Notes under the pieces: generated by a model
Told to the model about the DNA's origin: nothing
Seen by the model: the letters and a program-made list of their open reading frames with translations, nothing else
Database searches by the model: none
Source of the DNA: an uncultured Gemmatimonadota bacterium
Lineage (GTDB): Bacteria > JAAXHH01
Reading direction: 5' to 3'
Length of the DNA stretch: 64,000 nt
Assembly: GCA_951812955.1 (NCBI GenBank)
Contig: OX638340.1
Location: 2,624,001 to 2,688,000 of the forward strand
In this document: positions 17,530 through 57,015 of the stretch, piece by piece
How positions within the stretch are numbered: position 1 is the first letter of the stretch
How the letters are laid out: every line of letters starts with the position of its first letter
Translations under genes and position numbers: made by a program

Positions 17530-17578
17530 TGGGGTGAATCAGGTTGAAACAATTTCATCTTTTTTACTCCTTCTACGT

Positions 17579-18357: not shown

Positions 18358-18385
18358 ACCATCCTCCGAAAAGCATGAGTTGACC

Positions 18386-18821: not shown

Positions 18822-18914
18822 TTAGTACGTCGATAACATGCTCTTGCCGGAATCGGCTTTCTGGAGAACCTGGAGCTTGAACTCACGGAAGAACTGACGG
18901 CGTTTCAGGGACAT
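18822..18914 (-). pseudogene. IS3-family transposase OrfA N-terminal remnant (30 codons then stop)
   Basis: MSLKRRQFFREFKLQVLQKADSGKSMLSTY* resembles IS3/IS911 OrfA N-terminus (…RRxFSxEFKLxAVxLV…GxSV). Confidence 0.35.
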
Positions 18915-19069
18915 GGGGTGTCTCCTCGTTCAGAAGGAAGCTTAACTCTGTGTCCCGTTCAACGGTGCAGTACATCATTCCTACCTAACCCCGCTTTGTT
19001 GTGACGTATACTACCGTGTACAAGCTCCGCAAAATTTGTTATGTACGTCGTGTGTAGGAGATTTCAACT

Positions 19070-19483: not shown

Positions 19484-19740
19484 ACCTGGCCTCTGTTTTG
19501 TCCCACATTCGACAATGTCTACCCTTTTCACTTTACATTCCAAAAAAGCGCCTGACCGATAACAGTAAAGTGTGTATACTTTCCGCAGACATTCCAATCG
19601 ACTTACTTACATTAACCTTATAGATTTATATATAGTTATGTGACGTAATTCGGAACAGTTAAGCAGGTATATACAAACTTGCTTTTTAAACTGCCCGAAG
19701 ATTCTACAAGTCGTTAGACGGAATTCAAAGTAAAGGTATC

Positions 19741-22422: not shown

Positions 22423-23618
22423 GTAAGAAATTTGAAACGCTATCGAAAATCGGTCTTCTTCGAATGGGAGAAACGATTATCGCAAAGGACTGTTCTGGAG
22501 ATGGTTTGCCAATCTATTCCGCAAATAAAGGGAACAAGCCATGGGCGCATTCCGACCACTTTAGATGCAAAAATGAAAGAGGCTGTATTGTCATAGGGGC
22601 AAGAGGAACTATTGGCTATCCACGTCTTCCGAAAGATGAACTGTTTGGCGCAACTCAAACCACAATCGTATTTTCTCCTGACAAAGATCATTTTATCCCG
22701 GAATTCCTGCACTACAGCCTGCAACAAGTTGATTTTGAGAGTCTCGGAGCACAGCAGGCAATTCCTATGCTCACTGTTTCCAATTTAGAGAACCTAACGA
22801 TTCGTTCGTTCAAAAAACCTGAACAATCTAAGATCGCCAAGATTCTTACAACGGTCGATCAGGCGATTGAACAGACCGAAGCGTTGATAGCAAAACAGCA
22901 ACGCACCAAGACCGGTCTGATGCAAGACCTGCTCACACGCGGTATCGACGAAGATGGAAACCTTCGCTCCGAAGACACCCATGAATTTAAAGATTCACCG
23001 TTTGGGCGTATTCCGGTGGAGTGGGTAGTGAAAGAACTAAGTGATTTTTGCGACGTAACATCCAGTAAACGCATATACTTACATGATTACAATACAGAAG
23101 GTATTCCGTTCTATCGTTCAAAAGAAATCATCGAACTGGTAAGGGAAGGAAAAACTCTTGGTGGATTATATATCACGAAAAGTAAGTATCTTGCAATAAA
23201 GCGCATCTTTGGAACTCCTAATAAGGGCGACGTACTCATTAGCTCAGTAGGAACTCTTGGAATTTGCTATTTGGTCAGGGACAACGATCGATTCTATTTT
23301 AAAGATGGAAATCTCATCTGGCTCCGTCGATTTCAAAAACATATGAATCGGATATTTTTAATAGAATTACTACCAAGGATGATCAATACCCAATTTGATG
23401 ATCTTGTGATTGGGACAAGTCAAAAGGCATTCACGATTGAGAAGCTTAAGCGTCTCAAGCTTTATTTCCCATCGACCGAGGAGCAGAATAGACTAGCGGT
23501 TTCTGTTCAACAGTTCCAAGCTAAAATCGATTGCGAGATACAAAGTCTGCAAAAACTCCGATTCCTCAAGACCGCTTTAATGCATGACCTCCTCACTGGC
23601 AAGGTTTCTGTCAGGTAG
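22419..23618 (+). CDS. hsdS: Type I R-M specificity subunit HsdS
   Basis: 399 aa with two target-recognition-domain halves and conserved central/terminal helices; ATGA overlap with hsdM. Confidence 0.8.
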
Positions 23619-23644
23619 TTAATCACAGAAGCGGAGAGCAGTAT

Positions 23645-26600: not shown

Positions 26601-26773
26601 GTTTTTGGGAAAGCATTTCTGCACGCAACAAACTAAGGGCTGAAATTCAGAAAAAACTGCTTGGATCTACTTACGCGGCATTACCACACATAGTAGAGAA
26701 AAAAGACAGCATTATCAGCCGCACGATGGAGATCGCGGAGAAGAACAACGATATCATACTTTATGCGGAATAA
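23645..26773 (+). CDS. hsdR: Type I restriction enzyme R subunit HsdR (EcoKI-like endonuclease/helicase)
   Basis: 1042 aa; SF2 helicase motifs (TQGSGKSLTM Walker A, MTDEAHRSQY DEAH box); HsdR N-terminal nuclease region (VVVECKSPK). Confidence 0.9.
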   Translation: MSKNESPAHIKLDERNHVEKPILDQLEGMGWEIIDLDSQQLPVDTHRETLLEVVMFPVLREQLKVINPWIENDQVEEVVKQLSASFPGTGLTESNKHVLHLLLGNTIVSENRQSGENSPTVRYIDFKNLDNNRFIAVCQFKVRILGTEKHIIPDIVLFVNGLPVVVVECKSPKVKDAIPEAIDQILRYSEQRGDKGEGSAPLFYYNQFVVATCRQEAKFGTITTHIEKHFFRWADPYPKTLNDLEHGSGTPNDQQRLVAGMMAKDNLLDLIRTFTLFSTNDKGQTIKIVGRYQQYRAVKIAVKRLMEGATPRERSGIIWHTQGSGKSLTMMFMVREMYQQPKLASWKVVFVTDRTQLENQLSETSQSIGFTVKTANKISELKELLSTDTSDLVMGMIHKFQEDDLEETFPQLNDSPNILVMTDEAHRSQYKLLGANLDRAIPNAAKIGYTGTPIDKTEQVFGDYIDKYTMRQSIDDGVTLEIVYEGRTHNAEVSDQEGMDEAFTDVFSDYNIEERLAILGYGTRRAYLEAETTIEAKAKDMINHYLKHVYPNGYKAQIVATSREAAVRYKKHVDNTLEASIADLEKSNPNGLDLDLLKSIETDVVISGEGNDLSHLKTYSNPTKHESSIKSFKMDFGGEVDGLHGNMGILIVNNMLITGFDAPVEQVMYLDKVIFGHNLLQAIARVNRVAGEAKGKGFVIDYVGIGHNLKRAIDLYDKKEKNEIIDTLVFPEEALRELEDSHAEILAFREANGLEELADLDAYYDVFYDEALRFEYMQSFKKFTRNLNSVFPARQALEYMDEYNVYAEINTLAGKHFRDERLSMKGIPPKLLAITDKYLVSEGIHQQVKPVSILDDSFQESVNSHTRTKTKAAEIEHAIRHHLDVELNDDPDLQASFAEALAKILQEFKDNWSKVYEELEKLRQRIINVSKEPTYGLSRKKQMPFFRCYKREMFGENELNEDEISLLVDLTKQVFSVIELELKLIGFWESISARNKLRAEIQKKLLGSTYAALPHIVEKKDSIISRTMEIAEKNNDIILYAE

Positions 26774-26776
26774 CTG

Positions 26777-27460
26777 ATGAACGTGGACTATACAGTAAAG
26801 CGATCGCATAAGCGAAAGAAGCTGACAATTACAGTTGAGCGTGACCGGCAGGTTGTGATCTCCGCTCCCGAGTCAACTTCTGAGGAGGCAATTAGAAGAT
26901 ACATCGAATCGAAACGCCAGTGGATTTACGAGAAGTTGAATCACCTGCAGAAATACGAAACTCAACCTCATCCGCCTGGTAAGGAATTAGTAAATGGTGA
27001 ATCTACGCTTTATCTTGGCTCCGAGTATCAGATCCAGATTATCACTAGCAGTACGACTGAGATACGATTAGAGCAACGTTTTCTAGTTCCGAATTCTTTG
27101 GCGGGAGAAAGAAGGAAGGTATTTCAAAAATGGTATGTCGACCGGGCTAAAGAGAACATATTACCAAAAGTAAAATCGTTCGCCAGTATGCTCGGAGTGG
27201 AGTTTGCCAATGCGAAGATCATGGATAGTCGCTACCGTTGGGGCTCTTGTACAATCAAAGACAACATCAACTTAAACTGGCGTTTAATTAAAGCACCTAT
27301 GTTCGTAATCGACTATGTAGTAGTTCACGAACTCGCACATCTGATGGAGGCAAACCACACCTCTCGATTCTGGAATATCGTTAGGACGCACGCACCATTG
27401 ATGGAAAAGGCTCAAAGATGGCTTAAAGAAAATGGCCAGATACTCGAACAGGATATCTAG
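26777..27460 (+). CDS. YgjP/DUF45-family metal-dependent hydrolase (HExxH, WLM/SprT-like)
   Basis: HELAH zinc motif in YVVVHELAHLMEANH; 3 nt after hsdR stop; family frequently linked to hsdR. Confidence 0.75.
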   Translation: MNVDYTVKRSHKRKKLTITVERDRQVVISAPESTSEEAIRRYIESKRQWIYEKLNHLQKYETQPHPPGKELVNGESTLYLGSEYQIQIITSSTTEIRLEQRFLVPNSLAGERRKVFQKWYVDRAKENILPKVKSFASMLGVEFANAKIMDSRYRWGSCTIKDNINLNWRLIKAPMFVIDYVVVHELAHLMEANHTSRFWNIVRTHAPLMEKAQRWLKENGQILEQDI

Positions 27461-27525
27461 CGCGCAGTTCGAATAAACCAGTATCAGGTATTAACTGAAT
27501 CGTCGATTCATCCGCTTTTTTTAGA

Positions 27526-27921
27526 TTATCCGCATCCGCACACCAGCGCCTTACCCTCGGTGGCCTGCAGCCCCTCGGTTTCGTAGCCGTCCCGCATCCA
27601 CCAGTCCAGCCCGCCAATTAGTTCCTTTACGTTGAAACCCAACCTCGCCATGTTGAGCGCGCCCTTGGTCGACGCGTTGCAACCGATCCCATCGCAATAG
27701 GTTACGTACAGTGATTTTTTGTTCAGGTCGGCCGTGGAATCGGGATCCATGGTCCGGTGGGGAATGTTAACGGAGCCGGGGATATGCCGTTCGGTGTACG
27801 CTTCGGCGGACCGCGTGTCCACTACGACGATGTCATTGCCCAGGGTGATGGATTCCCACAGGTCGTAGGCATCGATCTCGTATTTCAGCTTACTCTCGTA
27901 GTGGGTAATCTGGTCTTTCAT
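27526..27921 (-). CDS. Single-domain rhodanese-like sulfurtransferase
   Basis: Active-site Cys loop CDGIGCNAS; ATG 27921 with GAGG SD; visibly GC-richer than its island neighbours. Confidence 0.65.
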   Translation of the reverse strand: MKDQITHYESKLKYEIDAYDLWESITLGNDIVVVDTRSAEAYTERHIPGSVNIPHRTMDPDSTADLNKKSLYVTYCDGIGCNASTKGALNMARLGFNVKELIGGLDWWMRDGYETEGLQATEGKALVCGCG

Positions 27922-28271
27922 TGTGCCTCTAACTGGTATGAGCCAAAGTGGGTGGTTCTGCGACACATCTATCTTAGGGAATACAAGAAGCTACCCAGCT
28001 CATTTCTAGTATAACAAATTAGCGTGCTGGATAGTGTATTCGTCTCAATTCTTCTTTAGGTTTATAACGCGGTTGGAATTTCTATACACGGCCATCAAGC
28101 CGAAAAATCCAGTTTATATTAGGAGTTGTGTCTGAAACTTCGGACCTATGGCGGGCATTACTCGCGAGGATTTGTAAATCTTTATATAAAACTAAACTCA
28201 AGTTACTCGCCCAATCTATCGATTAATGGTTTCATCTTAGCAGTTGATGTTTAATCTGAAATGAATGGATA

Positions 28272-29018
28272 TCAATGGACAAGAGCTTGAAACTCTTTCC
28301 CATTCATAGGCTTGTGTTTCGTCCAGCTTCCGCTCATTTCAACCAGGATTCGCTGCATCCATGAGTATGAATCAGAGGTGTAGATTTTCAGCACTCTAGC
28401 TTTGTATTCGGGATGTTCTTTCATAGCTTTAGTTAAATCATAAACCAAGTAACGAGGTGACCAACCAATCATGTGATAATCTAAAGTCTGGATTTGAACT
28501 GCCACCTTTGATACAGGATTGGTTAGTTCCAAGGTTACATACAACGGTTCATCTTCCTCTAATTTACTTAATCGGTTCTTTGCCGGTTTATTGATATGTC
28601 GAGTTCCGTGAAGAAAAAACCGGCACGTAAAGCTACCATCCGCTTCCTTGCGGATTTTCGGAAACACCTCATATGAATCAGTTACACGATTACCTCCATT
28701 AATGGATAGGATCTCAATTGGATCTGCTTCGTCACAGAGATCAAACCCCTTAAGGTAGTCCTCAAATTCTGGCCTCGATCGATTCAGAATTCGATTCTTA
28801 AATAACGGAAACAACTCCTTTGATGTATATTCATGGTCGAAACTAGGGAATTCAACCAGTGGAGCGAATCGTGCTTTTTCCATTGCCCGTTTTGCGCCGT
28901 AGATATAACGAAACTTAAAGAAAGGTTCGTTGATATCGGCATCAAGTCGACCTACGGGATACCATTCTCGGGTTGTTACCTGATCTTGCCAAGCAAGAAA
29001 AAGTGTTCTGAAGTTCAC
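28272..29018 (-). CDS. Uncharacterised 248-aa partner of the HipA-like kinase; N-terminal region weakly HipA-N/HipS-like
   Basis: GTG start overlaps kinase stop (GTGA); N-terminal …REWYPVGRLDADINEPFFKFRYIYGA…FPLFKNRIL… loosely resembles the HipA N-subdomain (V-G-L, F-x-Y, …F.NLLPE…) pattern. Confidence 0.45.
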   Translation of the reverse strand: MNFRTLFLAWQDQVTTREWYPVGRLDADINEPFFKFRYIYGAKRAMEKARFAPLVEFPSFDHEYTSKELFPLFKNRILNRSRPEFEDYLKGFDLCDEADPIEILSINGGNRVTDSYEVFPKIRKEADGSFTCRFFLHGTRHINKPAKNRLSKLEEDEPLYVTLELTNPVSKVAVQIQTLDYHMIGWSPRYLVYDLTKAMKEHPEYKARVLKIYTSDSYSWMQRILVEMSGSWTKHKPMNGKEFQALVH

Positions 29019-29905
29019 GAATCTATCTCCAATAGTTTTTGACGGTTATATAACATTAAATTCATTGCGAATTGTCGGGCGTGTATGCTCATCCAATCAT
29101 CTGGAATACGATTAACGATTTCCTCAAGGCTGCTTATGTCAAGTTGGTAGAGTCTTTGCAAAACGGAACTAAAAGACTCCGGTAGTTCATTGAATGTAGT
29201 GCGCACGACGCCAAGGGGGCTTAGCCCTCTAGTGTCTTCGCTAGACCTGTAAATCGGGCTTCGACCTTTTTCGGCATATTGTCCAACTCTATCCTCATCT
29301 AACAATCGAATACGCCTGTCATCATCGATTTCTCTTCCCAGAGACGATGCGTGGTCATATGACGGTGCCATAGTTTTCGACACCATAGAAAAATCCATCA
29401 AAACTCCCCAGTTTTCGTGATGTCGATCAGTGTTTCCAATAAACGCATCTAAGATTATGTATTCACAGAAAGTTTGTTTTGCACTATCGGCTTTTTCTTG
29501 TTCAAATACTGTCTCAAGAACGCTCCAGATATTAAAGATGGTATGGTCTGATTGCTTTTGTGTCTTTTCTGGCTCATATTCATTAAATATAAAACTCAGA
29601 AGTTGGTTACCATGAATCAGTTCATGGTAACGATCGGTAAATGACTTGGTAGCTGTTCCTTTGGTTTGCCTGAAAACGGCTAATTCGACGATTGCATGTG
29701 GGATATTGAGTAATTCTGCAACTTCAGATGCAACCTTTTCAGCCCAATGTTCGCCCCTACTCTCTCGATGGTATTTAAAAAGCCATAGTTCATCTTCAGA
29801 TTCGGATCGATTGAACCAGAATTTAGGTTTGCTTCCCATTTCTTCCTGAAGATACTGGTCTTCCTTAATTTCCTCGATCTGATAGTCATTCAACTTCCGC
29901 CCCAT
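29015..29905 (-). CDS. HipA-C-domain (HipT-like) Ser/Thr kinase, stand-alone kinase core
   Basis: Gly-rich loop MGSKPKFWF (cf. HipA GAQEKTAL), catalytic ILDAFIGNTDRHHENWGVL (cf. HipA ATDGHAKNFS), APSYDHASS (cf. HipA TPFYD); 296 aa, lacks HipA N-subdomain. Confidence 0.75.
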   Translation of the reverse strand: MGRKLNDYQIEEIKEDQYLQEEMGSKPKFWFNRSESEDELWLFKYHRESRGEHWAEKVASEVAELLNIPHAIVELAVFRQTKGTATKSFTDRYHELIHGNQLLSFIFNEYEPEKTQKQSDHTIFNIWSVLETVFEQEKADSAKQTFCEYIILDAFIGNTDRHHENWGVLMDFSMVSKTMAPSYDHASSLGREIDDDRRIRLLDEDRVGQYAEKGRSPIYRSSEDTRGLSPLGVVRTTFNELPESFSSVLQRLYQLDISSLEEIVNRIPDDWMSIHARQFAMNLMLYNRQKLLEIDS

Positions 29906-30794
29906 TTTTCTCGGTCTATGTCATTGGGCCTTAACATCCTGTTTTGCAATATCCAATGCGATGTTTGTTTTTTACGGTCCATCCCCAGTCACTAATGCGT
30001 CCACTTATGGCCTTTGGACAGATAAATTGCATGTCCTCGGTTTCCTCGGCTCGGTAGGAATCCTGCCGACTTGGACCACACGTCATTTCACGTCTGAGTG
30101 GCGGTTTTCACGACATGGCCCTCCAGTATGTGTCATTTCCTTATTTAACGCTATTAAACCAAAAAGTACCAGATGAACTGCAGGTGCTCCTCCAACTTGT
30201 CTGAGCACGTTCAATAGATCTCGATCATAATTTCGACTAAGTCTACGACAGTCATCCGTATTTCGCAATCCTTTCTCAAGCCGTAGAGCGGTGAAGTTAC
30301 GATCAGTTTTGAAACTGTCGTCTGGGAAAATTGCTATATATGTAAAATGTCTTCGTAGACTAGGTTTAGCGAAAAACTAATTACATCACGACTAGACTTG
30401 TCTGTGGATTTGCCATCATAGTCTGGCAATTTTCACCAATGTCTACCCAGGTAGACACATACTCTGGGTGACTCCTTTCGGGATGAAGGCGGACAGGTCC
30501 GCCCTGTCCGACCGAACATAAATCTTTGTTCGGTATTGCAATTATACGGTTTTCCGGGGGCCATAGCAATACTAAATTGAACAGGTACTATTCAGATGCG
30601 ATTTCTAATTGATACACATCCGCGTGTTGATCAGTACAGGTCAATATACTGGTCAATACCGTCTTGCTGTCTTGACCGTACAGCACTTCTTTTTCTAAGC
30701 ATTCCCACGCTTACTATAGAAAGTGTTTCAGTTTCTTTGGCGAACCATTTCCGTCAAATCGGTGATAATTCACCTCCATCGACAACAGGGGTAA

Positions 30795-32453
30795 TCTCAC
30801 ATTTCTGCTAATTACCTAAGCCTTAAAACCACCATCCAGTGGATCGGCCTGATCGCCGGTCCAGTCGTGGCGATCCTGCTCTACAGCCAGTTGCCCCATG
30901 CGTACATGAGCGGCACGGGCGAGGTGGTGGCGTTCTCGAACGCCGGCCGTGCGACATTGGCCCTGGCGGTGTGGATGGCGATCTGGTGGATGACAGAGGC
31001 CGTCGAGCTTTACGCCACGGCATTGTTGCCCCTGGTCGCCCTTCCGTTGGCCGGTGCGTCACCGGTGCGGGAAGCGGCCGCTCCCTACGCACACGAGTTG
31101 ATCTTCCTCTTCATGGGCGGTTTTCTCATCGCCCTGGCCATGCAGCGATGGGGGCTCCACCGACGCATGGCGTTCAAGGCCCTGCGTGCGGCCGGCGACC
31201 ACCCGGCGGGCATCGTGGCGTGCTTCATGGGCGTGACGGCCTTTTTCAGCATGTGGGTGTCCAACACGGCCACCGCGGTCATGATGCTCCCCATTGCCCT
31301 CAGCATCATCGCCTTGGTGGAGCAGGTGGAACCCGGTAGCGTGGCAGGCGGCGCTGGAAACGGCAGCACAGATAACAATGGTGCAGGAAGCGGAAATTCT
31401 GCCGCCGGAAACGGTGGCCCCGGAAGCGGCGTAGCAGTAGACGGTGACACGGGCAACGGCGGCCCCGGAAACAAAGGGCCTGAAACAAAGACGCGGCCCC
31501 ATTTCGCCCTGTGCCTGCTTCTGGGCATCGCCTACGCCGCATCCATCGGCGGGATCGGTACGATCATCGGCACGCCGCCCAACGTATTCCTCGCGTCCTT
31601 CATCCAGTCCAACCTGGGCCAGGAGATCAGCTTCGTCCGGTGGATGGGCGTGGGACTTCCCCTGGTGGCCGTTTTCCTGCCGCTGACGTGGCTGATGCTG
31701 ACCCGAGTCCTTTATCCCCTTCGGGCCGTGCGCATCGAGGGAAGCCGGGAGGTGACGGATAAGGCCTACCGGGAACTGGGCTCCATGTCGCGGGGGGAGA
31801 GGGTCGTGCTGGCGGTGTTCCTCCTCGCCGCCGTATCCTGGATTGCCCGTCCGTTGCTGGTCCAGGTCCAGATAGGTGACCTGACCCCGCTGGCCGGTCT
31901 GTCCGATCCGGTCATCGCCATGGTTGCGGCGCTGGCCCTCTTCGTCGTGCCGGTGGACGTAAAACGGCGAATCTTCGTGATGAACTGGGAAACGGCCGTG
32001 AAGCTTCCCTGGGGGATCCTGCTGCTCTTTGGAGGTGGGCTCAGCCTGGCCGCGGCCATCCGGGCCAATGCCGTGGGGGAATACATCGGGCACCAACTGG
32101 CCTTCCTGTCCGGCATCCCCACGCTGCTGCTCGTTATGGCCGTCATCGCGCTGGTGATCTTCCTGACCGAACTGACCAGCAACACGGCCACCACGGCCAC
32201 GTTCATCCCCATCCTGGCCGCCCTGGCGCCGGTTTTCGACCTGCACCCCTTCATGCTGATCGTGCCGGCCGCCATCGCCGCCAGCTGTGCCTTCATGCTG
32301 CCGGTCGCCACCCCGCCCAACGCCATCATCTTCGGTTCCGGTCACGTCACGATCCAGCAGATGATCCGCGCGGGGTTCTGGCTGAATCTGACCGGCGTCG
32401 TACTGATAACCTTGCTCGTATACACCGTGATGATGCGGATGCTCGGGGTCTGA
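30795..32453 (+). CDS. DASS (SLC13-like) divalent anion:Na+ symporter family transporter, 5' end removed at the island junction (no canonical start before GTG 30867)
   Basis: VSNTATAVMMLP DASS signature; in-frame open from 30795 with homology starting …IQWIGLIAGPVVAILLY (TM1) immediately at the GC shift; G/N-rich low-complexity loop. Confidence 0.7.
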   Translation, partial: SHISANYLSLKTTIQWIGLIAGPVVAILLYSQLPHAYMSGTGEVVAFSNAGRATLALAVWMAIWWMTEAVELYATALLPLVALPLAGASPVREAAAPYAHELIFLFMGGFLIALAMQRWGLHRRMAFKALRAAGDHPAGIVACFMGVTAFFSMWVSNTATAVMMLPIALSIIALVEQVEPGSVAGGAGNGSTDNNGAGSGNSAAGNGGPGSGVAVDGDTGNGGPGNKGPETKTRPHFALCLLLGIAYAASIGGIGTIIGTPPNVFLASFIQSNLGQEISFVRWMGVGLPLVAVFLPLTWLMLTRVLYPLRAVRIEGSREVTDKAYRELGSMSRGERVVLAVFLLAAVSWIARPLLVQVQIGDLTPLAGLSDPVIAMVAALALFVVPVDVKRRIFVMNWETAVKLPWGILLLFGGGLSLAAAIRANAVGEYIGHQLAFLSGIPTLLLVMAVIALVIFLTELTSNTATTATFIPILAALAPVFDLHPFMLIVPAAIAASCAFMLPVATPPNAIIFGSGHVTIQQMIRAGFWLNLTGVVLITLLVYTVMMRMLGV

Positions 32454-44485: not shown

Positions 44486-45601
44486 CTACCCCATCCTCAA
44501 ACCGCGGTCCTCAAGCGGCAGATCAACGCGAACGTTTCCCCTGCGGTGAGATTCCCTTAAGGCAATGGCGATTTCGAGGGCTTCGCGGCCGAACTCGCCG
44601 GGACAGGTCGTCTCCCTTCCATCTTCGATCGAACGGCACACACCCTCGATGGCGTCGACCATGGAGCTCCTGGGATGCCAGGGTCCGGGCAGGTGCGTCT
44701 GGGTAGGTGCGCCGGTTTCGGGGTGAGGCGTCCATAGCTCGAACTGGGCATGGGAATTCCGGGATACGATGCGGCCGGTTTCGCCGATGAACTCGAGGGA
44801 CCAGGAGTAAAGCAGGGATTCGGACCGGGAGTTCAGGATGGTGCGGATTCCGTTTTCGTATACAATTATCCCCGATCCGGGGATGTCGCCCTCTGAAGCG
44901 GCCTGGTCGTCTGTATCGATCAGACCGACTACCCACCGGGCGGGCGCACCGGCGAATAGACGCAGCAGGGCCAGGGTGTGGCTCTGGATGTTGGACAGCG
45001 TGGAGTGGCTGTGGCAGACCATGCTCTTCAATGGTCCAATGGCGCCTTCGGCGATGAGCCTGCGCGCCGTCGTGTAATAGCTGTACCAGTTGAGATGGCA
45101 GGCCATGGCGAGGATGACGCCGTGCCTGGCGCAGGCATCGATCATGGCATCGGCTTCGGCCAGCGTGCGGCACATGGGCTTCGTGGCAAAAATGGCCTTA
45201 ACCCCCAGTTCGGCCAATCCCACCGTGATCTCCGTGCGCGGCTCGGGCCGGGTGGTCAGGCAGACCAAGTCGATCGCTTCCTTTTCAACCATCTCCCGAT
45301 AGTCGGTGTAGAGGGCCGAAACGCCCCAGCGCCGCTTGAAATCCTCGAGTTTGGCGGGATCCTCGTCCGCCGCGGCGACGAGATCGATCCCCCGCGCCTC
45401 CATCATGGCGGGCGCGTGCGCCCAGGGCCAGGGGTAATGGGGCTGACCGACATGTTCGTCGTCGATGGTGCTGCCCATCCTTCCGCATCCGACCACGGCG
45501 CCCCGGTAGGTATGCTTTGGCGCTGTGTCCTCTACGGCCTGGAAGGCTTCATCGTTGGATTCGGGCATGGGGGACATTCCTTCTTCTGTCTTGCCAGTCA
45601 C
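44486..45601 (-). CDS. Gfo/Idh/MocA family oxidoreductase
   Basis: GAVVGCGRMGS Rossmann motif; 371 aa. Confidence 0.7.
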   Translation of the reverse strand: MTGKTEEGMSPMPESNDEAFQAVEDTAPKHTYRGAVVGCGRMGSTIDDEHVGQPHYPWPWAHAPAMMEARGIDLVAAADEDPAKLEDFKRRWGVSALYTDYREMVEKEAIDLVCLTTRPEPRTEITVGLAELGVKAIFATKPMCRTLAEADAMIDACARHGVILAMACHLNWYSYYTTARRLIAEGAIGPLKSMVCHSHSTLSNIQSHTLALLRLFAGAPARWVVGLIDTDDQAASEGDIPGSGIIVYENGIRTILNSRSESLLYSWSLEFIGETGRIVSRNSHAQFELWTPHPETGAPTQTHLPGPWHPRSSMVDAIEGVCRSIEDGRETTCPGEFGREALEIAIALRESHRRGNVRVDLPLEDRGLRMG

Positions 45602-45634
45602 CGGTCAGAGAGAACCGTGCTTACCAAGTGGAAC

Positions 45635-46033
45635 CTATTTGGAAGAAATGCGCTGCGAGGTATGGTTTGGCCCGAGTTCGACCGGTTTGCCGTGCGGCGT
45701 GTTCAGATACGCCCTTCGCCATGCGTCCTTGCGGTTCGACGCTTCCGCCTGAGACACGAGCCCGCGCGCTCTGCAGAAGCGCTCAAGGGCCCGGAGCCAG
45801 TGCCGGTAATACGTATTGCCCTGGTCGGGGTCGCCCTCCCGCTGTGCCGCACGTATCTCCTCGCTCAGCGTGGCGGCCCACTCGCCCCACGTGAAGTAAC
45901 CTTCGCCGGAGAGACGCACCGCGAGCGCGAACGCCGATGCCTCCCATGGCGCGGCGAACACCGGCGAGCCATCGTCCCCAAGCGGTATGTCTCCCAGCCC
46001 ATGCGTGACGCCGGGCAGTTGCGAGTCTGTCAC
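45635..46033 (-). CDS. Nitrile hydratase accessory/activator protein (beta-subunit homologue, self-subunit-swapping chaperone type)
   Basis: …PVFAAPWEASAFALAVRLSGEGYFTWGEWAATLSEEI… resembles NHase beta N-terminus; GTGA overlap with beta gene. Confidence 0.65.
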   Translation of the reverse strand: MTDSQLPGVTHGLGDIPLGDDGSPVFAAPWEASAFALAVRLSGEGYFTWGEWAATLSEEIRAAQREGDPDQGNTYYRHWLRALERFCRARGLVSQAEASNRKDAWRRAYLNTPHGKPVELGPNHTSQRISSK

Positions 46034-46701
46034 GGTTCAGGCTCCAGGTACGATTCCCAGAGGTCGACGTATACGGCGCTGTTCAAGTTGGCCGATTCCC
46101 CCCACAGATCACGCCCCTCGAAGCGAACGTTGTAGAGATGCCTTCCCTCGTCCACGCCCTGGGCGCTCAGGTCTGGGTACACCTGTGACCCGTAGTGCTC
46201 CCGCACGATCCCCGTGTGGCCTCGAACATAACGCGGTGCGCGTGTGTGCCCGCTTGGGTGGCGGTTGATTGCGCGCACACGGTCGCCGGGCGTAAAGCGG
46301 GCCGGGCCGGGCGCGGGCCGGACGTAGCTCGCAGTCATGTAGGGAGCCCCCAGCACCTGTTCGGCATGCACGACCCGTTCCATGATGTATTCCGGCACGG
46401 GGGTCGCCGCCCTTCCGGTCTGCAATTCCTCTTCGGAAACGAGGCCGGACCTGACCAGTTGCTTCTGTATACCCGCGAACCAATTCTCGTAGTATGAGTT
46501 GGCGAGATATTCGGCAGGAGGCAACTGCTCCCTGTTGTGGCGGGACATGTCGATGTTCCACAGTCCCAGAAGCCCGATAAGACGGACGATGCCGTACACC
46601 CGGCTCTCCCATTCCTCGTGGAAGACCGGCTCCTCGGACTCCGGTTCAGGTTGCACCGGTCCGAACCCCTTCATCCCGCCCAGGTCGTGTACGCCCTTCA
46701 T
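46030..46701 (-). CDS. Nitrile hydratase beta subunit
   Basis: Starts [10 protein letters not shown] (classic MNGxHDLGG); C-terminal …[10 protein letters not shown]…. Confidence 0.8.
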
Positions 46702-47333
46702 GGTTTGCCGCCTTGCGCTGCCGGTTGCCGCGCCTCCTCGACTCCGATCATGGCGTTGCGCGTCACGAGTTCCATGAGTTCCTCTTCGCTCCATCCCTCC
46801 GTGCCTTCGGGTCGCTGCGGCAGCACGAGGTAGCGCATCTCAGAGGTGGAATCCCATACGCGCACCTCTTTCCGATCGGCAATCTCCGAACCGAACTGCC
46901 TGATCACGCCTCGCGGATCGATGACGGCCTGCGCTCTGTATGGCGCGGACTTGTACCAGACGGGCGGCAGGCCAAGGAGCGGCCACGGGTAGCAGGAGCA
47001 GAGCGTACAGACGACGAGGTTGTGTACGTCGTCCGTGTTTGCCACGACACGCATCTGCTCGCCCTGCGCCCCCACGTAGCCCATCGATGCGATGGCGGCA
47101 TCCGGGTCGTCAAGCAGCCACCGCCTGTACGCTTCGTCCGACCAGGCATGCGCAACGACGTGCTTGCCGTTCGCCGGACCGATCTTGTCCTGGTACAGGT
47201 CAATGAGCGCGTCCAGCGCCTCCGGATCGACGAGGCCTTTCTCCACGAGCAGTGACTCGAGCGCTTTCACGCGCAACTCGATATCCGGGGGCGGCTCCGT
47301 GTGGTCTTGATGGTGCCGGTGATCGATGGCCAT
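46698..47333 (-). CDS. Nitrile hydratase alpha subunit, cobalt-type
   Basis: Metal-binding [10 protein letters not shown] (Co-type CTLCSCY rather than Fe-type CSLCSCT). Confidence 0.85.
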
Positions 47334-47365: not shown

Positions 47366-47578
47366 TCAGCGGTCAATCTGATGGTCGTCGGAAATCCGGA
47401 GATGTCCTTCGTCCCTACCCAGGTGGGTATTCCTATCGTGCATTTCGATTCGAACCTCGGAGAACTTTACGTTCATTTCAGTTCGTAACTCTTCAATATC
47501 GTCTCGCAGGGAGGCGATGTCCTTCCGGATAGCAATGGTAGAACGCCCCATGAAGGTCAGGATCGCCACGACCAGCAC
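47366..47578 (-). CDS. Small membrane protein (copy 1 of a duplicated gene)
   Basis: 70 aa, N-terminal [14 protein letters not shown]; 3' portion contains the ~67-bp repeat shared with copy 2. Confidence 0.35.
47412..47479. repeat. Direct repeat copy 1 (~67 bp, identical to 48997-49064) flanking the phosphotransferase cassette
   Basis: ccctacccaggtgggtattcctatcgtgcatttcgattcgaacctcggagaactttacgttcatttc read at both sites. Confidence 0.85.
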
Positions 47579-47683
47579 ACCACGGCTGTGATCCCCTGCA
47601 TTTACTAACCTGTGTTTTCCGTATTTAAAAGCATTATATCATGTTTTTGACTTTATGATGGAGACTTCGGAAAGTATTCCCTT

Positions 47684-48781
47684 TTACGCCTCGGTTAAAC
47701 TCAAATCCGTGATTGCTGCAATAAATCTCTCGGACACTGCTCGTGCGAGTCTGTTTTCTCGGTCATTTTCCGGATTCAAAGAAGCTACCATAAGTACAGC
47801 CTGGATAAAATAACGTAGCATGGCGAGACGGTAGTCTTTCCAGCAATCATCCAAGGTGTATCCTCTGACTCCATTGGCCTTCAGGGTTTCATGGTAGAAT
47901 TTAAGGAGTTGGCGTTCTTCGGCTTGTCGTTTTGGTGTGGTTTTTAAACATCCACCGATATACCATGCGATATCCGAAACGCCCTCTCCGCACGATACGT
48001 CCTGCCAGTCGATCACGGCGAAGCCCGGCTCTCCAAGAGAAGCACCAAAAAACACGTTCTCCAAACGAAAATCTCCGTGAACCATGGTTCTCGGCGGTTT
48101 ACCCAATTGGGATTCATTTTTTAACTTCTCGGGTAATTGTTTTCCAAATGTCTTGACTGCATCCGTCATCAAGTCTTCAGTTTTATCGGCAAAGACTGGA
48201 AAAGCTTCTTTATACTGATCAAGGATCCAATTCGAAACAGCGTCAGAATCCTTCGGCGAATTCGCCAGCCAATCAAACGCTTCGAGTCTTTTGTTTTCCC
48301 ACCAATAGGCGTGAAACCTGGCTATTTCGTGGAGAGCATGTGCCGTCTCTTTCATTGTACTTCCACTGATTTGATCTCCAACTTTCGCGGGAGCAAGGTC
48401 TTCAAGAATCCTGATGTACTTTCCATGAGTAACACTCATCGCACTGAAATAACAGAGGGGTGTGCGAAGGGGTATCTCGCTGGCAATTTGCTGATAAAAC
48501 AAAATCTCGCACTTATCTGGTGTAGGTAGACGCGTTTTTGCTCGTAGAGGCTCATCTGGTGCATGTAGTTTGGCAATCAGCTTTTTGGGCAGTTCTGATT
48601 GAGGTTGATTAAAGCCAAGGTGCAAGCGTGCTAACTGTCCGTCACAAGTCAATTCTGCAATCGGCTCGATACGAAGCGAGGCTATACCGACATTCGAAAA
48701 CGTATTTGTTGAAACTAGTGCTGCGGTGAGCCAATGAGATGTTATATCCAGAGGTGTATTGGGAATACTCAAAAGAGTCAT
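47684..48781 (-). CDS. APH/choline-kinase-like phosphotransferase (kinase-like fold, HGDxxxxN)
   Basis: …MVHGDFRLENVFF… Brenner motif; …VIDWQDVSCGEG…; AT-rich relative to surroundings. Confidence 0.65.
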   Translation of the reverse strand: MTLLSIPNTPLDITSHWLTAALVSTNTFSNVGIASLRIEPIAELTCDGQLARLHLGFNQPQSELPKKLIAKLHAPDEPLRAKTRLPTPDKCEILFYQQIASEIPLRTPLCYFSAMSVTHGKYIRILEDLAPAKVGDQISGSTMKETAHALHEIARFHAYWWENKRLEAFDWLANSPKDSDAVSNWILDQYKEAFPVFADKTEDLMTDAVKTFGKQLPEKLKNESQLGKPPRTMVHGDFRLENVFFGASLGEPGFAVIDWQDVSCGEGVSDIAWYIGGCLKTTPKRQAEERQLLKFYHETLKANGVRGYTLDDCWKDYRLAMLRYFIQAVLMVASLNPENDRENRLARAVSERFIAAITDLSLTEA

Positions 48782-48996
48782 CAGAATTCCAGCCGCCTAG
48801 ATGTAGCCGAATAACGAGCACGCTTACTACATCAGTGTTCGAGAGGAATAACCAGTAATGAGTTACAGGTTTATGATATGGCGGTGCCAATTACACAGAA
48901 CTACAGACTCAAACAACGGCGCTGAGATCACCGTTCGCCCTTACTGTGGTCGTTGGAATTCGTAGATCTCCTTCGACCGTACCCAGGCGGTTATTC

Positions 48997-49064
48997 ACCC
49001 TACCCAGGTGGGTATTCCTATCGTGCATTTCGATTCGAACCTCGGAGAACTTTACGTTCATTTC
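48997..49064. repeat. Direct repeat copy 2 (~67 bp)
   Basis: Identical to 47412-47479; preceded by an extra 20-bp imperfect duplication (tacccaggcggttattcacc / ctacccaggtgggtattcc). Confidence 0.85.
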
Positions 49065-49207
49065 TGTCCGTAGCCCTTGAAATCGTCCCTCAAAGTCCCG
49101 ATGTCTTCCCTCAGAGCGTTTGTCGAACGCCCCAGGAAGGTGGGGATCGCCACGACCAGCACGCCGACAGCAGTGATTCCTTGTATGAATATGCCGAGTG
49201 ATTCCAT
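49058..49207 (-). pseudogene. Small membrane protein copy 2, frameshifted relative to copy 1
   Basis: MESLGIFIQGITAVGVLVVAIPTFLGRSTNALREDIGTLRDDFKGYGQK* ; 1-nt difference from copy 1 puts the shared repeat out of frame. Confidence 0.4.
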
Positions 49208-49311
49208 GACCAGGATGTGTGGATGAGAGTTTAGGAATTATGACACACTAACTATATCAGTGTGAGAAGTCCTGGAAATCTTGGTGGTTTTTTAATTTTT
49301 AAAAAAGGACC

Positions 49312-50658
49312 TTACGCGCCGTCCTGCCCGATCAGCAGTTCGAGCGGTTGCTCGAGGACTTCCCTGAGGTGGGAGAGGAACCGGCCGGCGACCGCGCCGT
49401 CGATAAGCCTGTGGTCGGAGGAGAGCGTGATCGACATCATGGCCTTGATCTCGACCTTGCCGTCCACCGCGACCGGGGTGTCCTTCACCCGGCCCACGGC
49501 GAGGATGGCCGCTTCCGGCGGGTTGATGATGGCGGTGAACTGGTCCACGCCGAACATGCCGAGATTGGAGATGGTGAAGGTGCCATAGCCGTAGTCTGAG
49601 GGGCCCAGGCCCTGTGCCCGTGCCTTCTTGCCCAGCGCACTGGTCAGCGCGGCGATCTCGAAGACCGATTTCTGATCGGCGGACGCCACGACCGGGACGA
49701 CCAGCCCGTCATCTAGGGCGACGGCGAAACCCACGTTCACGTCCGCATACTCCACGATATCCCCGCCTTCGAGGGACGCGTTGACGGCGGGGAAGGACCG
49801 CAGGGCGATCCCGGCGGCCTTGATGATCAGGTCGTTCACGGAGACCCTGGCCAAGCCGCGTTTTTCGCCGTAGGCGATCAGCTGTTCCCGCAGCCCGGTA
49901 AGCCGCGTCATGTCCACGTCCATGGTGAGGTAGAAGTGGGGAATGGTTGAAGCGCTTTCGGCCAGTCGCGTCGCGGCGACCTTGCGCAGGCCGCTGAGCG
50001 GCGCGCGGCGTTGGACGCGTTTCGAACCGGGACTGGATGGGGCCGAGGCCGTTGCTGGCTCCGTCACGGGCGTCGCCGTTGCTGCCGCTGGAATCGGCGC
50101 GGCGGCGGCCTGGGCAGCAAAGGCTTCCACGTCCGAGAAAACAATCCGCCCACCGGGGCCCGTCCCCGCTATATTTCCGATGTCTACGCCGAGATCTCGT
50201 GCGTGCCGACGCGCCTTGGGCGAAATTTTGACGCGGCCGGGTTGTCCGGGCCGTCCGTCCGGTTCGGTCATGGCCGCCTGCCCCTGGCCGTTTTGTTCGG
50301 GAGCTACGGCGGCCGGGATACCTTCCCCGGTCGTTCCAGCCGGGTCGGACACCAATGCATCCGCGCCACCTGTCGCGCCTCCGCCATCGCCGGGGTCTCC
50401 GTCGCCGCCGACGGTCTCACCCGCTTCGCCGATGTATCCGATGACCTGCTGAATGGGCACGTCGTCTCCCGGTCCGTGCATAATCTTGAGCAGCGTGCCG
50501 GAAGCCTTTGCCTCGACTTCCATCACGCTCTTGTCCGTTTCGACGTTGAAGAGCACTTCGCCCTCTTTGACGGAATCGCCTTCATTTTTCATCCACTCGA
50601 CGATGATTCCGGATTCCATGGTCATGCCGAGTACGGGCATGATGACTTCTGTGGCCAT
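49312..50658 (-). CDS. Dihydrolipoamide acyltransferase (E2) of a 2-oxoacid dehydrogenase complex
   Basis: Lipoyl domain (…ETDKSVMEVEA…), Pro/Gly-rich linker, subunit-binding region (ISPKARRHARDLGVDI), catalytic C-terminus; start MATEVIMP. Confidence 0.85.
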   Translation of the reverse strand: MATEVIMPVLGMTMESGIIVEWMKNEGDSVKEGEVLFNVETDKSVMEVEAKASGTLLKIMHGPGDDVPIQQVIGYIGEAGETVGGDGDPGDGGGATGGADALVSDPAGTTGEGIPAAVAPEQNGQGQAAMTEPDGRPGQPGRVKISPKARRHARDLGVDIGNIAGTGPGGRIVFSDVEAFAAQAAAAPIPAAATATPVTEPATASAPSSPGSKRVQRRAPLSGLRKVAATRLAESASTIPHFYLTMDVDMTRLTGLREQLIAYGEKRGLARVSVNDLIIKAAGIALRSFPAVNASLEGGDIVEYADVNVGFAVALDDGLVVPVVASADQKSVFEIAALTSALGKKARAQGLGPSDYGYGTFTISNLGMFGVDQFTAIINPPEAAILAVGRVKDTPVAVDGKVEIKAMMSITLSSDHRLIDGAVAGRFLSHLREVLEQPLELLIGQDGA

Positions 50659-50988
50659 TACGGGCTCCCGGGGTCCTTTGATACGTCCGATCCTGGTCTG
50701 TATTCTCTGTGCTAAATCTTTTGTATCTATGTGACTTACAACGCGATAAAAAGTCCGTAGAGCATACACTTCCGCATGGCCGGCGTCAAGCATTTTTTGA
50801 TTGACTTGGACCGGAGGAAAGGGATAGATTCATCCCGGTTCCGCATTCGAAAAACACGGGAGGGAAACCGTCCCGAGGTACGGATTCTTCCATCCTGAAC
50901 GAATGTAAGAACAGTTTTTCGGAACGTCCGCGTTTCGAGGACCTGTTCGGCTGTTGTTCACCCTACCTGCGTGGAGGATCCGAGCCAC

Positions 50989-54577: not shown

Positions 54578-55441
54578 TCACCCGACCAGGCGGCGCAGGT
54601 ATTCGCAGTACGCGTTGTCTTCCACATAATTTCCGATCTTCAGCACCTGGTCCCGGTCGATGTACCCCTTCCGGTAGGCGATTTCTTCGACGCAGCCGAT
54701 CTTCAAGCCCTGCCGGTGTTCGACGGCCTGGACGAAATTGCTCGCCTCCAGCAGGCTTTCCGGCGTGCCGGTATCCATCCAGACGATCCCTTCGTCGAAC
54801 CGCTCCACCTTCAGCTTGCCCCGCTGGAGATAGATGTTATTCACATCGGTGATCTCGAGTTCTCCGCGGCCCGATGGCCGCAGCGTTTTTGCAATGAATA
54901 CGACTTCGTTGTCGTAGAAGTAGAGCCCCGTGACGGCGTAGTTGGATCGTGGATTGCGGGGTTTCTCTTCAATGCCGACGACGCGCTCGTGCTCGTCGAA
55001 TTCGACCACGCCGTACCGTTCGGGCTCCTTGACGTAGCAGGCGAAGACCAGTCCTCCGTCTTCGTGCTGCGCGGCCTTTTCGACGATCTCGGTCAGGTTG
55101 CTGCCGTAGAAGAAGTTGTCTCCGAAGATCAGTGCACATGATTCATCGCCGATAAACGATTCCCCTATCAGAAAAGCCTGTGCCACCCCCGCGGGCGCGG
55201 GTTGTATGGCATATTCGAAGTGCATCCCGAGGGCGCTGCCGTCGCCGAAGAGCCTGCGGTACAGGTCGATGTGATCGGGAGAGGAAATGATCAGGATTTC
55301 CCGAATCCCCGCCATCAAGAGGACCGACAGCGGATAGTAGATCATCGGCTTGTCGAAGATGGGGATGATCTGCTTCGATATGGCCTGGGTCTGCGGGTAT
55401 AGACGCAATCCGTGCCCACCCGCGAGTATGATGCCCTTCAT
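54578..55441 (-). CDS. rfbA: Glucose-1-phosphate thymidylyltransferase
   Basis: Starts MKGIILAGGHGLRLYPQT; 288 aa; the 51 upstream ORF codons lack homology, so start set at ATG 55441. Confidence 0.85.
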   Translation of the reverse strand: MKGIILAGGHGLRLYPQTQAISKQIIPIFDKPMIYYPLSVLLMAGIREILIISSPDHIDLYRRLFGDGSALGMHFEYAIQPAPAGVAQAFLIGESFIGDESCALIFGDNFFYGSNLTEIVEKAAQHEDGGLVFACYVKEPERYGVVEFDEHERVVGIEEKPRNPRSNYAVTGLYFYDNEVVFIAKTLRPSGRGELEITDVNNIYLQRGKLKVERFDEGIVWMDTGTPESLLEASNFVQAVEHRQGLKIGCVEEIAYRKGYIDRDQVLKIGNYVEDNAYCEYLRRLVG

Positions 55442-55761
55442 TTGTGGTCTCCGGTTGTCGTAGGGGCGACTAGCACTAGAGGATCCTGTTTTAGGTGTCA
55501 TACACGCTTTCACAAGTTGAATTGCAAAAGATGGACAAGCGAAGAATCGCTGGACTGAGCACATCAGCAAAAAACGCGAAGTTGAATCCGGCAAGCCGAT
55601 TCTTTTTACGAGGCTACAAATCTGTTTTCGACTAAGTTTGTAGTCAAAGTAAACGCTTCATGCCGTAAAAAACACATGTCATTTTTTAAAATTAGAAACA
55701 ATCGCAATCGAAACTGGAGATAAACCACCCCTCATCGAACTCAAAAGCAAAGAAGCGACAT

Positions 55762-56650
55762 ATGGCTGATGACTCTACCACGACTGCTATACCACCAAAA
55801 CAACCGGATACGAGTAGTTCGATTGCAATTAAGTGGCTTCATTCCAAGCTTGTGGAGATTGAAGACCATACATGCATGGATGCGTTAACGATATTTGGTC
55901 CCATAACGGAAACAGTAGATCATCGAGTCAGGTTGGCGATCGAGAGTTTACCGAATCACCGCAACGGCTTGTTGGTCATTATCGATACACCCGGTGGAAT
56001 TGTAGAGGTAGCCGAACGTATTGTAACCACTATCAGGCATTACTACAAAGAGGTCAAGTTTCTCATACCTGATAAAGCGATGTCAGCAGGTACGGTTCTG
56101 GTGATGTCTGGAGATGCGATATTGATGGATCACTTTTCTTGTTTAGGCCCAGTTGATCCACAGTTGTATATCGAAGGCAAACCAATCCCGACGTCTGTCC
56201 TTTCTTATCTTGAACAATATGAACGATTTGTTCAAAAATCCATGGAAGGTACCTTGACGAGTGCTGATTTGGTTCTGCTTCAAAAGCTTGACGCTGCTGA
56301 CTTACGACAGTACGAACTGGCGGCCGAGTTATCTGTGCGCCCGTGATTGGCTTGTTCGGTATAAATTCAAGGATTGGTCCAAGCACAGTTCCACAGGGAA
56401 CACGGTTTCAAAAGAGGAAAAAACAATCCGTGCCGAAGAAGTTGCGAGAGCGCTTAATGATCAGGAAAGATGGGGTACCCATGGAAGGGGAATAAACCGA
56501 GAAGTTCTTGTCAAATTAAAGCTCAAGATTGATAATTTGGAATCCGATACTGAATTAAGTAGTCTAACAAAAGAGTATTTCTGGTTTTTTAGAGACTTAG
56601 CATTCAAAGAGGAGTCGCAAAGTCTTGTACACAACCGGTTATTCATCTGA
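55762..56650 (+). pseudogene. SDH-family (PF01972-like) Clp-fold serine protease, apparently frameshifted (55762..56346 frame A then 56261..56650 frame B)
   Basis: LLVIIDTPGGIVEVAERIVTTIRHY…KAMSAGTVLVMSGDAILMDHFSCLGPVDPQL matches the family core; frames A+B sum to the family's usual ~290 aa; AT-rich. Confidence 0.55.
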
Positions 56651-56660
56651 GAGGAATATC

Positions 56661-56882
56661 ATGAAAACAAATGACAAACTTGTCCTCACTAAGGAACAAC
56701 TGGTTGAGAACCCCGCTGTCAATCCCGGGATTGTAAAAGAAGCGCTGAAAATGCGCCTTGAACTGGAGCGTTTAGGAGTATGGGATAACAGTGGGACACG
56801 TGTGGTATCGCCTTCCGAAATCAGGCCAGCTAAGAATCCCATCGGGAATATCAGACGTCGGTCTATTTCTCAAATCCGGTAA
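56661..56882 (+). CDS. Hypothetical small protein
   Basis: 73 aa from MKTNDKLVLTKEQL; AT-rich like the preceding protease gene. Confidence 0.3.
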   Translation: MKTNDKLVLTKEQLVENPAVNPGIVKEALKMRLELERLGVWDNSGTRVVSPSEIRPAKNPIGNIRRRSISQIR

Positions 56883-57015
56883 TCCTAGCCTGCAGCCGTA
56901 TTATCCTCAGGTATTAAGTCCTTGTTCCGGATTCAATACCCATACTGAATGGTTTGATTAGGCAGTAGCGAAGAAAACGAGCCCGCCCGTTCCTCACCCG
57001 CTCTTCACCCGCTCT

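Follow-up and report, generated by a model that had tools for sequence, protein, structure and literature searches.

An intact, low-GC kinase gene that stands between two damaged copies of a small membrane-protein gene, with a perfect 67-nucleotide (nt) direct repeat shared by the two copies, raises the question of what that repeat records: the scar left by insertion of a foreign cassette, or an event that befell the locus afterwards. The locus lies on contig OX638340.1 (GenBank assembly GCA_951812955.1), within positions 2,624,001 to 2,688,000; this whole 64,000-nt stretch is referred to here as the window, and all coordinates are given relative to its first letter. The setting would be an intergenic slot prone to structural change, inside a conserved cluster of host genes composed of an E2 dihydrolipoamide acyltransferase gene, the nitrile hydratase (NHase) alpha, beta, and accessory genes, and a GFO-type oxidoreductase gene. 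We think it probable that the kinase is an old foreign gene that was relocated by recombination among the small-gene copies, and that the perfect repeat came from a later conversion. A literature search found nothing specific to this locus.

The repeat and the two small-gene copies

All of the genes concerned are on the minus strand, and in that direction the order is E2 (49312 to 50793), small-gene copy 2 (48909 to 49207), kinase (47684 to 48781), small-gene copy 1 (47366 to 47622), NHase (45635 to 47333), and, past the NHase genes, the GFO/IDH/MocA oxidoreductase (GFO). E2, recognized by Pfam, is the host gene upstream of copy 2. The NHase operon, with alpha (46698 to 47333), beta (46030 to 46794), and accessory (45635 to 46033) genes also recognized by Pfam, consists of host genes directly downstream of copy 1, and an earlier note on this DNA was right to place it next to the kinase cassette.

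The repeat is exact over 67 nt (47413 to 47479 and 48998 to 49064), as that note had described to within a nucleotide or so, and no shuffle of 100 matched it. Both units, the only two in the window, are inside the minus-strand copies of the small membrane/coiled-coil gene that flank the kinase open reading frame (ORF). The block of identity is sharp edged, with 67 of 67 positions matching in the core and ~76% identity around it; ungapped extension runs to ~168 nt, made up of 84 nt at 94% identity and a next 84 nt at 76%. By our own arithmetic, the chance of 67 matches in a row at a background identity of ~76% is ~1e-8. GC content is 0.39 to 0.48 over 47500 to 49300, compared with 0.62 to 0.69 in the flanking genes.

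Neither copy is undamaged. Copy 2 is a pseudogene whose frameshift, already recognized in the earlier note, is a 1-nt deletion (AAA to AA at 49077/78); its tail carries a 3-nt insertion and a 1-nt deletion, and the stop codon homologous to that of the gene family is at 48928 to 48930. Damage had been reported for copy 2 only, but copy 1 has lost its start codon (ATG to ACG), contains an in-frame TAG TAA as well as a 1-nt deletion, and is shorter by one heptad; it is either a pseudogene or a 5'-truncated ORF. The extra local duplication of 20 bp that had been ascribed to copy 2 exists as an extra segment, although it is 21 nt long (7 codons, 48977 to 48997, minus strand) and corresponds to a second heptad, RVNNRLG, a family-typical repeat unit present in copy 2 and not in copy 1, rather than to an odd duplication.

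No transposase or integrase gene was seen among the ORFs listed from E2 to GFO or among the neighbors scanned by Pfam, there are no tRNA genes in the window that could serve as integration sites, and the inverted repeats at the locus are weak ones only. An Rfam scan of the region gave no match, and promoter and terminator scans returned sites no more numerous than those in shuffled sequence; an A-type promoter-like site stands at ~49237 to 49278. The notion that the repeat might be a dispersed element, such as a miniature inverted-repeat transposable element or a repetitive extragenic palindrome, is not supported by the repeat search: beyond the two copies in 64 kb, the 67-nt core has zero exact matches in 185,579 species genomes, and all members of its gene family for which context was fetched are at one locus. 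There was likewise no exact match to a window-specific 33-mer in metagenome contigs, and no record was returned by exact-protein look-ups with the window kinase, the protein P0043, or the copy-1 ORF.

An intact kinase gene of apparently foreign origin

The kinase gene is intact and codes for 365 amino acids (aa), assigned to the EcKL/APH/choline kinase fold by Pfam, by its residues, and by an AlphaFold2 (AF2) model. Its matches exceed the Pfam gathering scores for EcKL (PF02958; E value of 3e-13, 50 bits with a cutoff of 22), DUF1679 (PF07914; 39.8 bits, cutoff of 24), and APH (PF01636; 37.8 bits, cutoff of 23.2). The catalytic loop is HGDFRLEN, of the HxDxxxxN pattern, the metal-binding Asp is in the motif IDWQD, and the N-lobe Lys/Glu pair is present; residues K71, E92, H235, D237, N242, and D258 are all found in the window kinase and are invariant across 40 homologues. 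The APH/choline kinase-like assignment made from the HGDFRLEN motif in the earlier note is thus well founded. The AF2 model (predicted local distance difference test score of 86.6, predicted template modeling score of 0.87) is placed by Foldseek in the APH/ChoK/PsiK fold with a probability of 1.0, at template modeling (TM) scores of ~0.5 and 10 to 17% identity, with matches to PsiK, NahK, APH(2''), choline kinases, MTR kinase, and 25-hydroxysteroid kinase. A PDB search with the single kinase sequence gave no match and a profile was required, with which the nearest solved proteins are ACAD10/11-type kinase domains that match over the catalytic loop only. An antibiotic kinase, as had been suggested, is not what the sequence points to, with the best curated resistance-enzyme models scoring 14.2 bits (APH(2'')-IIa, cutoff of 625) and 13 bits (viomycin Vph, cutoff of 400). 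Nothing specific to bacterial EcKL kinases was found in a literature search. The gene is probably functional as a small-molecule kinase, of a substrate class that its sequence does not predict.

The composition of the kinase sets it apart from its hosts. GC content at third codon positions (GC3) is 0.43 in the window kinase and 0.38 to 0.43 among the kinases of high-GC hosts (the window and four related loci), compared with 0.73 to 0.79 in host genes, in agreement with the foreign composition proposed earlier. Outside its own lineage, the closest homologues (70 to 76% identity) are on Candidatus Poribacteria chromosomes and similar low-GC contigs. The Poribacteria kinase genes have a GC content of 0.44 to 0.48, which is the genome's own composition, and the kinase is a core, syntenic gene there, within the conserved neighborhood PhyH-(carbonic anhydrase)-HAD hydrolase-kinase-GNAT-Sortilin/BNR-glyoxalase. 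The 61-nt spacer between the kinase stop codon and copy 1 (47623 to 47683, minus strand) is 85 to 89% identical to the same spacer in the related loci L001 and L003 and includes an extended -10-like element, TGATATAAT, at ~47633 to 47641. In alignments with the sequence that follows the kinase in the low-GC loci L022 and L023, this spacer has a local score of 19 to 23, where 100 shuffles reach a maximum of 21 to 22 with a mean of ~10, and a ATGATATAATG motif common to the two is seen by eye; this spacer probably came along with the kinase from the donor. We therefore regard the kinase as foreign, given its low GC3 relative to host genes, its closest relatives being Poribacteria genes of native GC content in synteny, and the likeness of the 3' spacer.

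The acquisition appears to be old and the function retained, because the high-GC-host kinases form one clade (100% bootstrap), sister to the low-GC Poribacteria clade, because synonymous divergence (dS) is comparable in the kinase (0.30 to 0.50) and the flanking host genes (0.3 to 0.6), and because the ratio of nonsynonymous to synonymous divergence is 0.22 to 0.30 among high-GC hosts and 0.23 for the window kinase. A recent arrival of the kinase from an L001/L003-like strain was considered and is out, as kinase dS equals host-gene dS. The kinase is common to related Latescibacterota-like sponge and coral symbionts, a label that derives from the nearest labeled relative alone (L004, a coral-derived metagenome-assembled genome [MAG] of Candidatus Latescibacterota); the other relatives of the locus are from sponge and Tara metagenomes. 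We conclude from these sequence comparisons that there was one old transfer, in which an ancestor gained one kinase gene from a low-GC Poribacteria-type donor, apparently with ~60 nt of 3' flank, and kept it functional under purifying selection with hardly any amelioration.

Locus layouts and a probable relocation of the kinase

The small gene occupies up to three sites in related loci, with A lying between E2 and NHase and with B and C flanking the kinase on its upstream and downstream sides, respectively. L001 and L003 have the order E2-A-NHase-B-kinase-C-GFO, and L004 has E2-NHase-kinase-GFO with zero small genes. The kinase is also without small genes in L020 (1 to 7800 and 9311 to 9710), where it precedes two fragments of a decayed GFO gene. 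Conversely, the kinase is lacking from L025 to L034, which have one small gene before GFO, from L035 to L037, which have A, B, and C, and from L039, which has A plus one further copy. The lineage-specific small gene, in 0 to 3 copies per relative, shares the locus with the kinase, at sites A, B, and C in L001 and L003, and structural changes cluster at this locus. We note that the L020 kinase is preceded by defense-type genes (NACHT, SIR2-like, Fic, and DUF433), with the NHase operon not there, and that MmeI-type restriction genes follow GFO in L025, L028, and L035.

The kinase adjoins GFO in four relatives; in the window it is between E2 and NHase. The rooted kinase tree has the form ((window,(L001,L003)),(L004,L020)), and because kinase-GFO adjacency occurs on both sides of its root, the window position is presumably derived. 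The two window copies were compared segment by segment with copies A, B, and C of the relatives. In copy 2, the upstream region is 73 to 77% identical to A, and the membrane-helix head is 84 to 89% identical to A, with B almost as close and C at 76 to 77%; at the 3' flank, identity is 91% to B and 55% to A. In copy 1, the upstream region (85 to 89%) and the head (78 to 81%) resemble C, and the 3' flank (84%) resembles A. By this measure the window copies are reciprocal mosaics, copy 2 having an A/B-type head on a B-type tail and 3' flank, and copy 1 a C-type head on an A-type tail, which is a signature of homologous recombination. These are the two products expected if a segment running from B tail through the kinase to C head recombined into A, and the parental layout, with A followed by B-kinase-C, is present in L001 and L003. 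The spacer from the copy-2 tail to the kinase start (48782 to 48908, minus strand) is homologous to the B-to-kinase spacer of L001 and L003, matching the B flank at 91% over 55 nt; its final ~15 nt look, by eye, like Poribacteria upstream sequence.

The spacer that separates GFO from the NHase accessory gene (45568 to 45640, minus strand), where relatives carry the kinase, small genes, or both, agrees with what follows the accessory gene in L036 as far as ...GACCGGTGA; past that point L036 runs into an E2 fragment and copy B, and the window jumps to ~35 nt upstream of the GFO start. From this break point we read the spacer as a deletion scar at the old kinase site. The E2 fragment is a duplication of the last 34 to 39 nt of the E2 3' end (...LELLIGQDGA*), located upstream of copy B and downstream of the accessory gene (L001, ~9437 to 9475; L003, ~9427 to 9492, where it possibly extends to ~70 nt; L036, ~7632 to 7665); it scores well above shuffles, and its position before B implies that copy B was made from an E2-A junction. 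A remnant of the fragment in the window's own accessory-GFO spacer is only suggestive, since the match is no better than shuffles. The accessory gene itself reads through at its 3' end (45635 to 45660), where CAG replaces the TAG stop of L004 and adds six residues to the protein (...HTSQRISSK*); L036 has the same read-through sequence as the window.

From the reciprocal mosaics and on grounds of parsimony, we propose that homologous recombination carried the segment from B tail through kinase to C head into copy A, either by moving it or by copying it. It could have been excised as a circle that reintegrated in the manner of a Campbell-type event, or a break in A could have been repaired using B-kinase-C as the template, with the original then deleted. 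Either way, copies 2 and 1 would be the products, and deletion would have removed what was left at the former site of the segment, between the accessory gene and GFO.

A sister contig and the origin of the perfect repeat

A second strain separates the repeat from the rearrangement. L038 is a 2,055-nt short-read contig (Logan, ERR3887492) from a run independent of the window's assembly; it aligns with window positions 49351 to 47277 at ~96% identity over 2,054 aligned nt and has the same gene order. The lesions of the window are there too, namely, the 1-nt deletion of copy 2 (49077/78) and the ACG start, TAG TAA, and 1-nt deletion of copy 1. This common order with common lesions rules out an assembly artifact and frameshifts due to sequencing error, and it makes the rearrangement and the pseudogenization older than the split of the two strains.

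Within L038, the cores of copies 1 and 2 agree at only 50 of 67 positions. When the window and L038 are compared, mismatches number 17 of 65 in the copy-2 core (26%), with a 21-nt indel alongside, versus 0 of 67 in the copy-1 core and 0 to 7% in all other segments, or ~3% overall. Since L038 has the same arrangement without the identity block and the divergence is concentrated in the copy-2 core, the perfect repeat is most simply a short gene-conversion tract that postdates the rearrangement, in which ~67 nt of copy 2 (48998 to 49064) would have been overwritten, in the window lineage only, with copy-1-type sequence (47413 to 47479). The event itself is seen in the L038 comparison, and its direction is what we infer. 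Each window core matches the cores of its nearest relatives at 59 of 67 positions, with the same eight differences in both, and the relatives' cores differ at 6 to 12 of 67 positions. The A and C cores within L001 agree at 64 of 67 positions, compared with 60 to 61 of 67 between genomes, which hints that conversion among small-gene cores recurs. Of the two mechanisms offered in the earlier note, it is the recombination or gene-conversion tract that the comparative data, both mosaic and L038, have borne out.

A locus-specific small-gene family

Searched with the frame-repaired copy 2, a collection of 5.8 billion proteins yields 42 clusters of 67 to 99 aa with no Pfam domain, and a profile search enlarges this set to a broader but sparse family, whose 84 representatives are built to the same plan. 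Members share a near-invariant membrane helix at the N terminus, 7- and 11-residue repeats in variable number, and the conserved tail DMNTRLGRVEG. P0008, P0012, P0031, P0034, and others vary by whole repeat units (for example, LREDIGV three times or an 11-residue unit twice) with the helix and C-terminal motif fixed, and distant members (P0163 to P0179) retain the design and end in DMNTRLGRVEG. Pfam and NCBIfam searches with the small protein gave sub-threshold coiled-coil matches only. DUF948/CCDC90-like proteins have the same architecture, a single transmembrane helix at the N terminus and then a heptad coiled coil, but their models score 17 to 21 bits against the small protein, under cutoffs of 33 to 37, and they differ in that the conserved DMNTRLGRVEG and the variable 7- and 11-residue repeats belong to the small-gene family. 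By sequence, the small genes are a separate, undescribed small-protein family.

Every small-gene copy for which context was fetched sits in the E2-NHase-GFO locus. With all contexts at one locus and 0 to 3 copies per relative, the small gene is, on this comparison, locus specific and prone to local duplication, and would be neither a dispersed element nor a duplicated insertion target. Copy C of L003 (11161 to 11373) is also frameshifted, giving a 70-aa product (P0037) that ends in NTPWFGSILASIR, and small-gene decay is thus not confined to the window.

In L025 (4759 to 5300), L026, L027, L028, and L030, a block of ~550 nt is 99 to 100% identical, compared with 88 to 96% in the flanking NHase and GFO genes. 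It takes in the single small gene together with the spacer that follows the NHase accessory gene and the 22 nt ahead of GFO. Synonymous differences in the small gene number 0 to 3 at 63 sites, and the proportion of synonymous differences (pS) in GFO is 0.11 to 0.34. These loci were picked by their identical small protein, an ascertainment bias with which the block has to be read. Rfam gave no match on the conserved block in L025. The block could reflect a recent recombinational sweep or constraint at the nucleotide level. As a long shot, the small gene might be a portable homology handle that multiplies in intergenic slots, converts among copies and strains, and reshuffles, captures, or ejects neighbors such as the kinase; were this so, the near-invariant block would reflect active spread or a noncoding function rather than chance.

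Weighing the alternatives

Several observations sit uneasily with a relocated kinase and a later conversion. Conservative recombination among three copies predicts a third hybrid between the accessory gene and GFO, and none is there, such that one extra deletion must be assumed for either route. The host-gene trees are star-like and unrooted, and polarity thus rests on the kinase tree and parsimony. No intermediate, either a circle or a duplicated kinase, is seen. The kinases of high-GC hosts branch as the sister group of the sampled Poribacteria rather than from within them, which leaves composition, synteny, and flank resemblance as the grounds for naming the donor. Finally, the segment of copy 2 that differs from L038 also includes the 21-nt heptad and four or five changes that are not in copy 1, so that a simple conversion of copy 2 by copy 1 leaves part of it unexplained; the donor of the copy-2 core may have been a third paralog, now lost, or the converted lineage may be that of L038 rather than that of the window.

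The polarity bears on an alternative that we consider unlikely, in which the window-type order is ancestral. A copy of the kinase module, with the end of E2, would have arisen downstream of the NHase accessory gene; recombination between the two small genes flanking the original would then have deleted it, leaving copy A and giving the L001/L003 order. Such a history accommodates the E2 fragment of 34 to 39 nt before copy B in L001, L003, and L036, which is the neighborhood of copy 2 in the window, and recombination of copy 2 with copy 1 would give exactly an A-type gene; nor do the host-gene trees fix the root against it. Nonetheless, kinase-GFO adjacency extends to L004 and L020, across the rooted kinase tree, copy A occurs without any kinase in L039 and L036, and the end of the accessory-GFO spacer match at the very point where L036 enters the E2 fragment and copy B is more easily a deletion. 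A different view of the repeat is that the 67-nt core is functional, as a recombination site, regulatory RNA, or protein-binding site, with its identity held by selection. We find this very improbable: L038 copy 2 holds a 75%-identical core in the same arrangement, relatives' cores vary at 6 to 12 of 67 positions, and there is no Rfam match and no copy outside the small-gene family, although the copy-1 core is identical in the window and L038 despite ~3 to 4% regional divergence, and the ~550-nt small-gene block of the L025 clade is far more conserved than its flanking genes.

The reading first offered for this locus, in which a foreign kinase cassette entered one small gene, its target was duplicated, and the 67-nt repeat is the duplication scar, draws on the foreign composition of the kinase and on its bracketing by direct repeats in copies of one gene. 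It can hardly be upheld, as the copies are ~76% identical outside the core, are of different paralog types that are reciprocally joined, and have different flanks; the kinase occurs without the small gene in L004 and L020 and the small genes without the kinase in L025 to L037 and L039; L038 has the same insertion and no perfect repeat; and no transposase or integrase ORF accompanies it in the E2-GFO ORF list or the scanned neighbors. To an assembly artifact, in which a low-GC contig of another organism was joined through a k-mer-sized repeat, we give practically no credence. A 67-nt repeat is within assembler k-mer range and the insert resembles co-resident Poribacteria in GC content, but the independent L038 contig spans E2, copy 2, kinase, copy 1, and NHase alpha without the perfect repeat, relatives from other samples hold the same low-GC kinase in the same host cluster, and the high-GC-host kinase clade is distinct from Poribacteria.

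Other features of the window

A 14-kb low-GC island (17000 to 31000; GC content of 0.40 to 0.51 compared with ~0.62 around it) codes for a type I restriction-modification system, with HsdM at 19741 to 22422, HsdS at 22419 to 23618, and HsdR at 23645 to 26773, as well as a YgjP-like metallopeptidase (26777 to 27460) and, on the minus strand, a HIRAN-domain protein (28272 to 29018) and a HipA-like kinase (29015 to 29905). It is probably an acquired defense island. A second, short low-GC stretch (55000 to 57000; GC content of 0.45 to 0.50) contains a ClpP/SDH-type serine protease-like ORF (55762 to 56346) adjoining a nucleoside triphosphate (NTP)-transferase gene (54578 to 55594, minus strand).

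Implications and comparison with known systems

With the kinase taken as an old acquisition that was relocated and only later framed by a perfect repeat, the locus would provide a clean, datable case of a gene that crossed phyla between co-resident sponge symbionts, with Poribacteria-type donors and Latescibacterota-like recipients, and that then underwent local rearrangement and conversion. It also carries a caution for genome scans, in that perfect direct repeats around a foreign gene can postdate its insertion and need not be its scar. Two further subjects come into view, a kinase that is core in Poribacteria and uncharacterized, and an undescribed family of small proteins.

Structures of the EcKL/APH/ChoK superfamily that were compared include PsiK (8zic), NahK (4wh2), APH(2'')-IIa (3ham), ChoK (1nw1), and the ACAD10/11 domain (3dxp and 8v3v). 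The window kinase is like them in its Pfam score, its HGDFRLEN loop, the Asp of IDWQD, and a predicted bilobal fold (TM score of ~0.5), and differs in having 10 to 17% identity to the solved structures and no matching resistance model. In the putative donor phylum, Poribacteria, the kinase is a conserved chromosomal gene, with genes for a HAD hydrolase and GNAT acetyltransferase as neighbors.

In bacteria, rRNA operons, tuf genes, insertion sequence copies, and rhs elements are known to undergo ectopic gene conversion and unequal homologous recombination. Conversion and unequal recombination between paralogs have the features seen here: a sharp perfect block in paralogs of ~76% identity and a sister lineage without the block, along with reciprocal mosaic copies and a gene between the repeats that is relocated. 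The present case differs in that the repeats are tiny (~260 to 300 nt), diverged, locus specific, and decaying, with a tract of ~67 nt, and in that it is known from sequence comparison alone, with no observed intermediate. Campbell-type integration likewise leaves an insert between two direct hybrid copies, with the head of one on the tail of the other; here there is no replicon, recombinase, or att site, the presumed circle would be ~1.6 kb of chromosomal DNA and is not seen, and break-repair copying would yield the same product. All of the components are familiar, comprising horizontal acquisition of a single gene, rearrangement via short paralogous repeats, and ectopic conversion, and are ordinary genome evolution; the current understanding of these mechanisms is unchanged by the finding.

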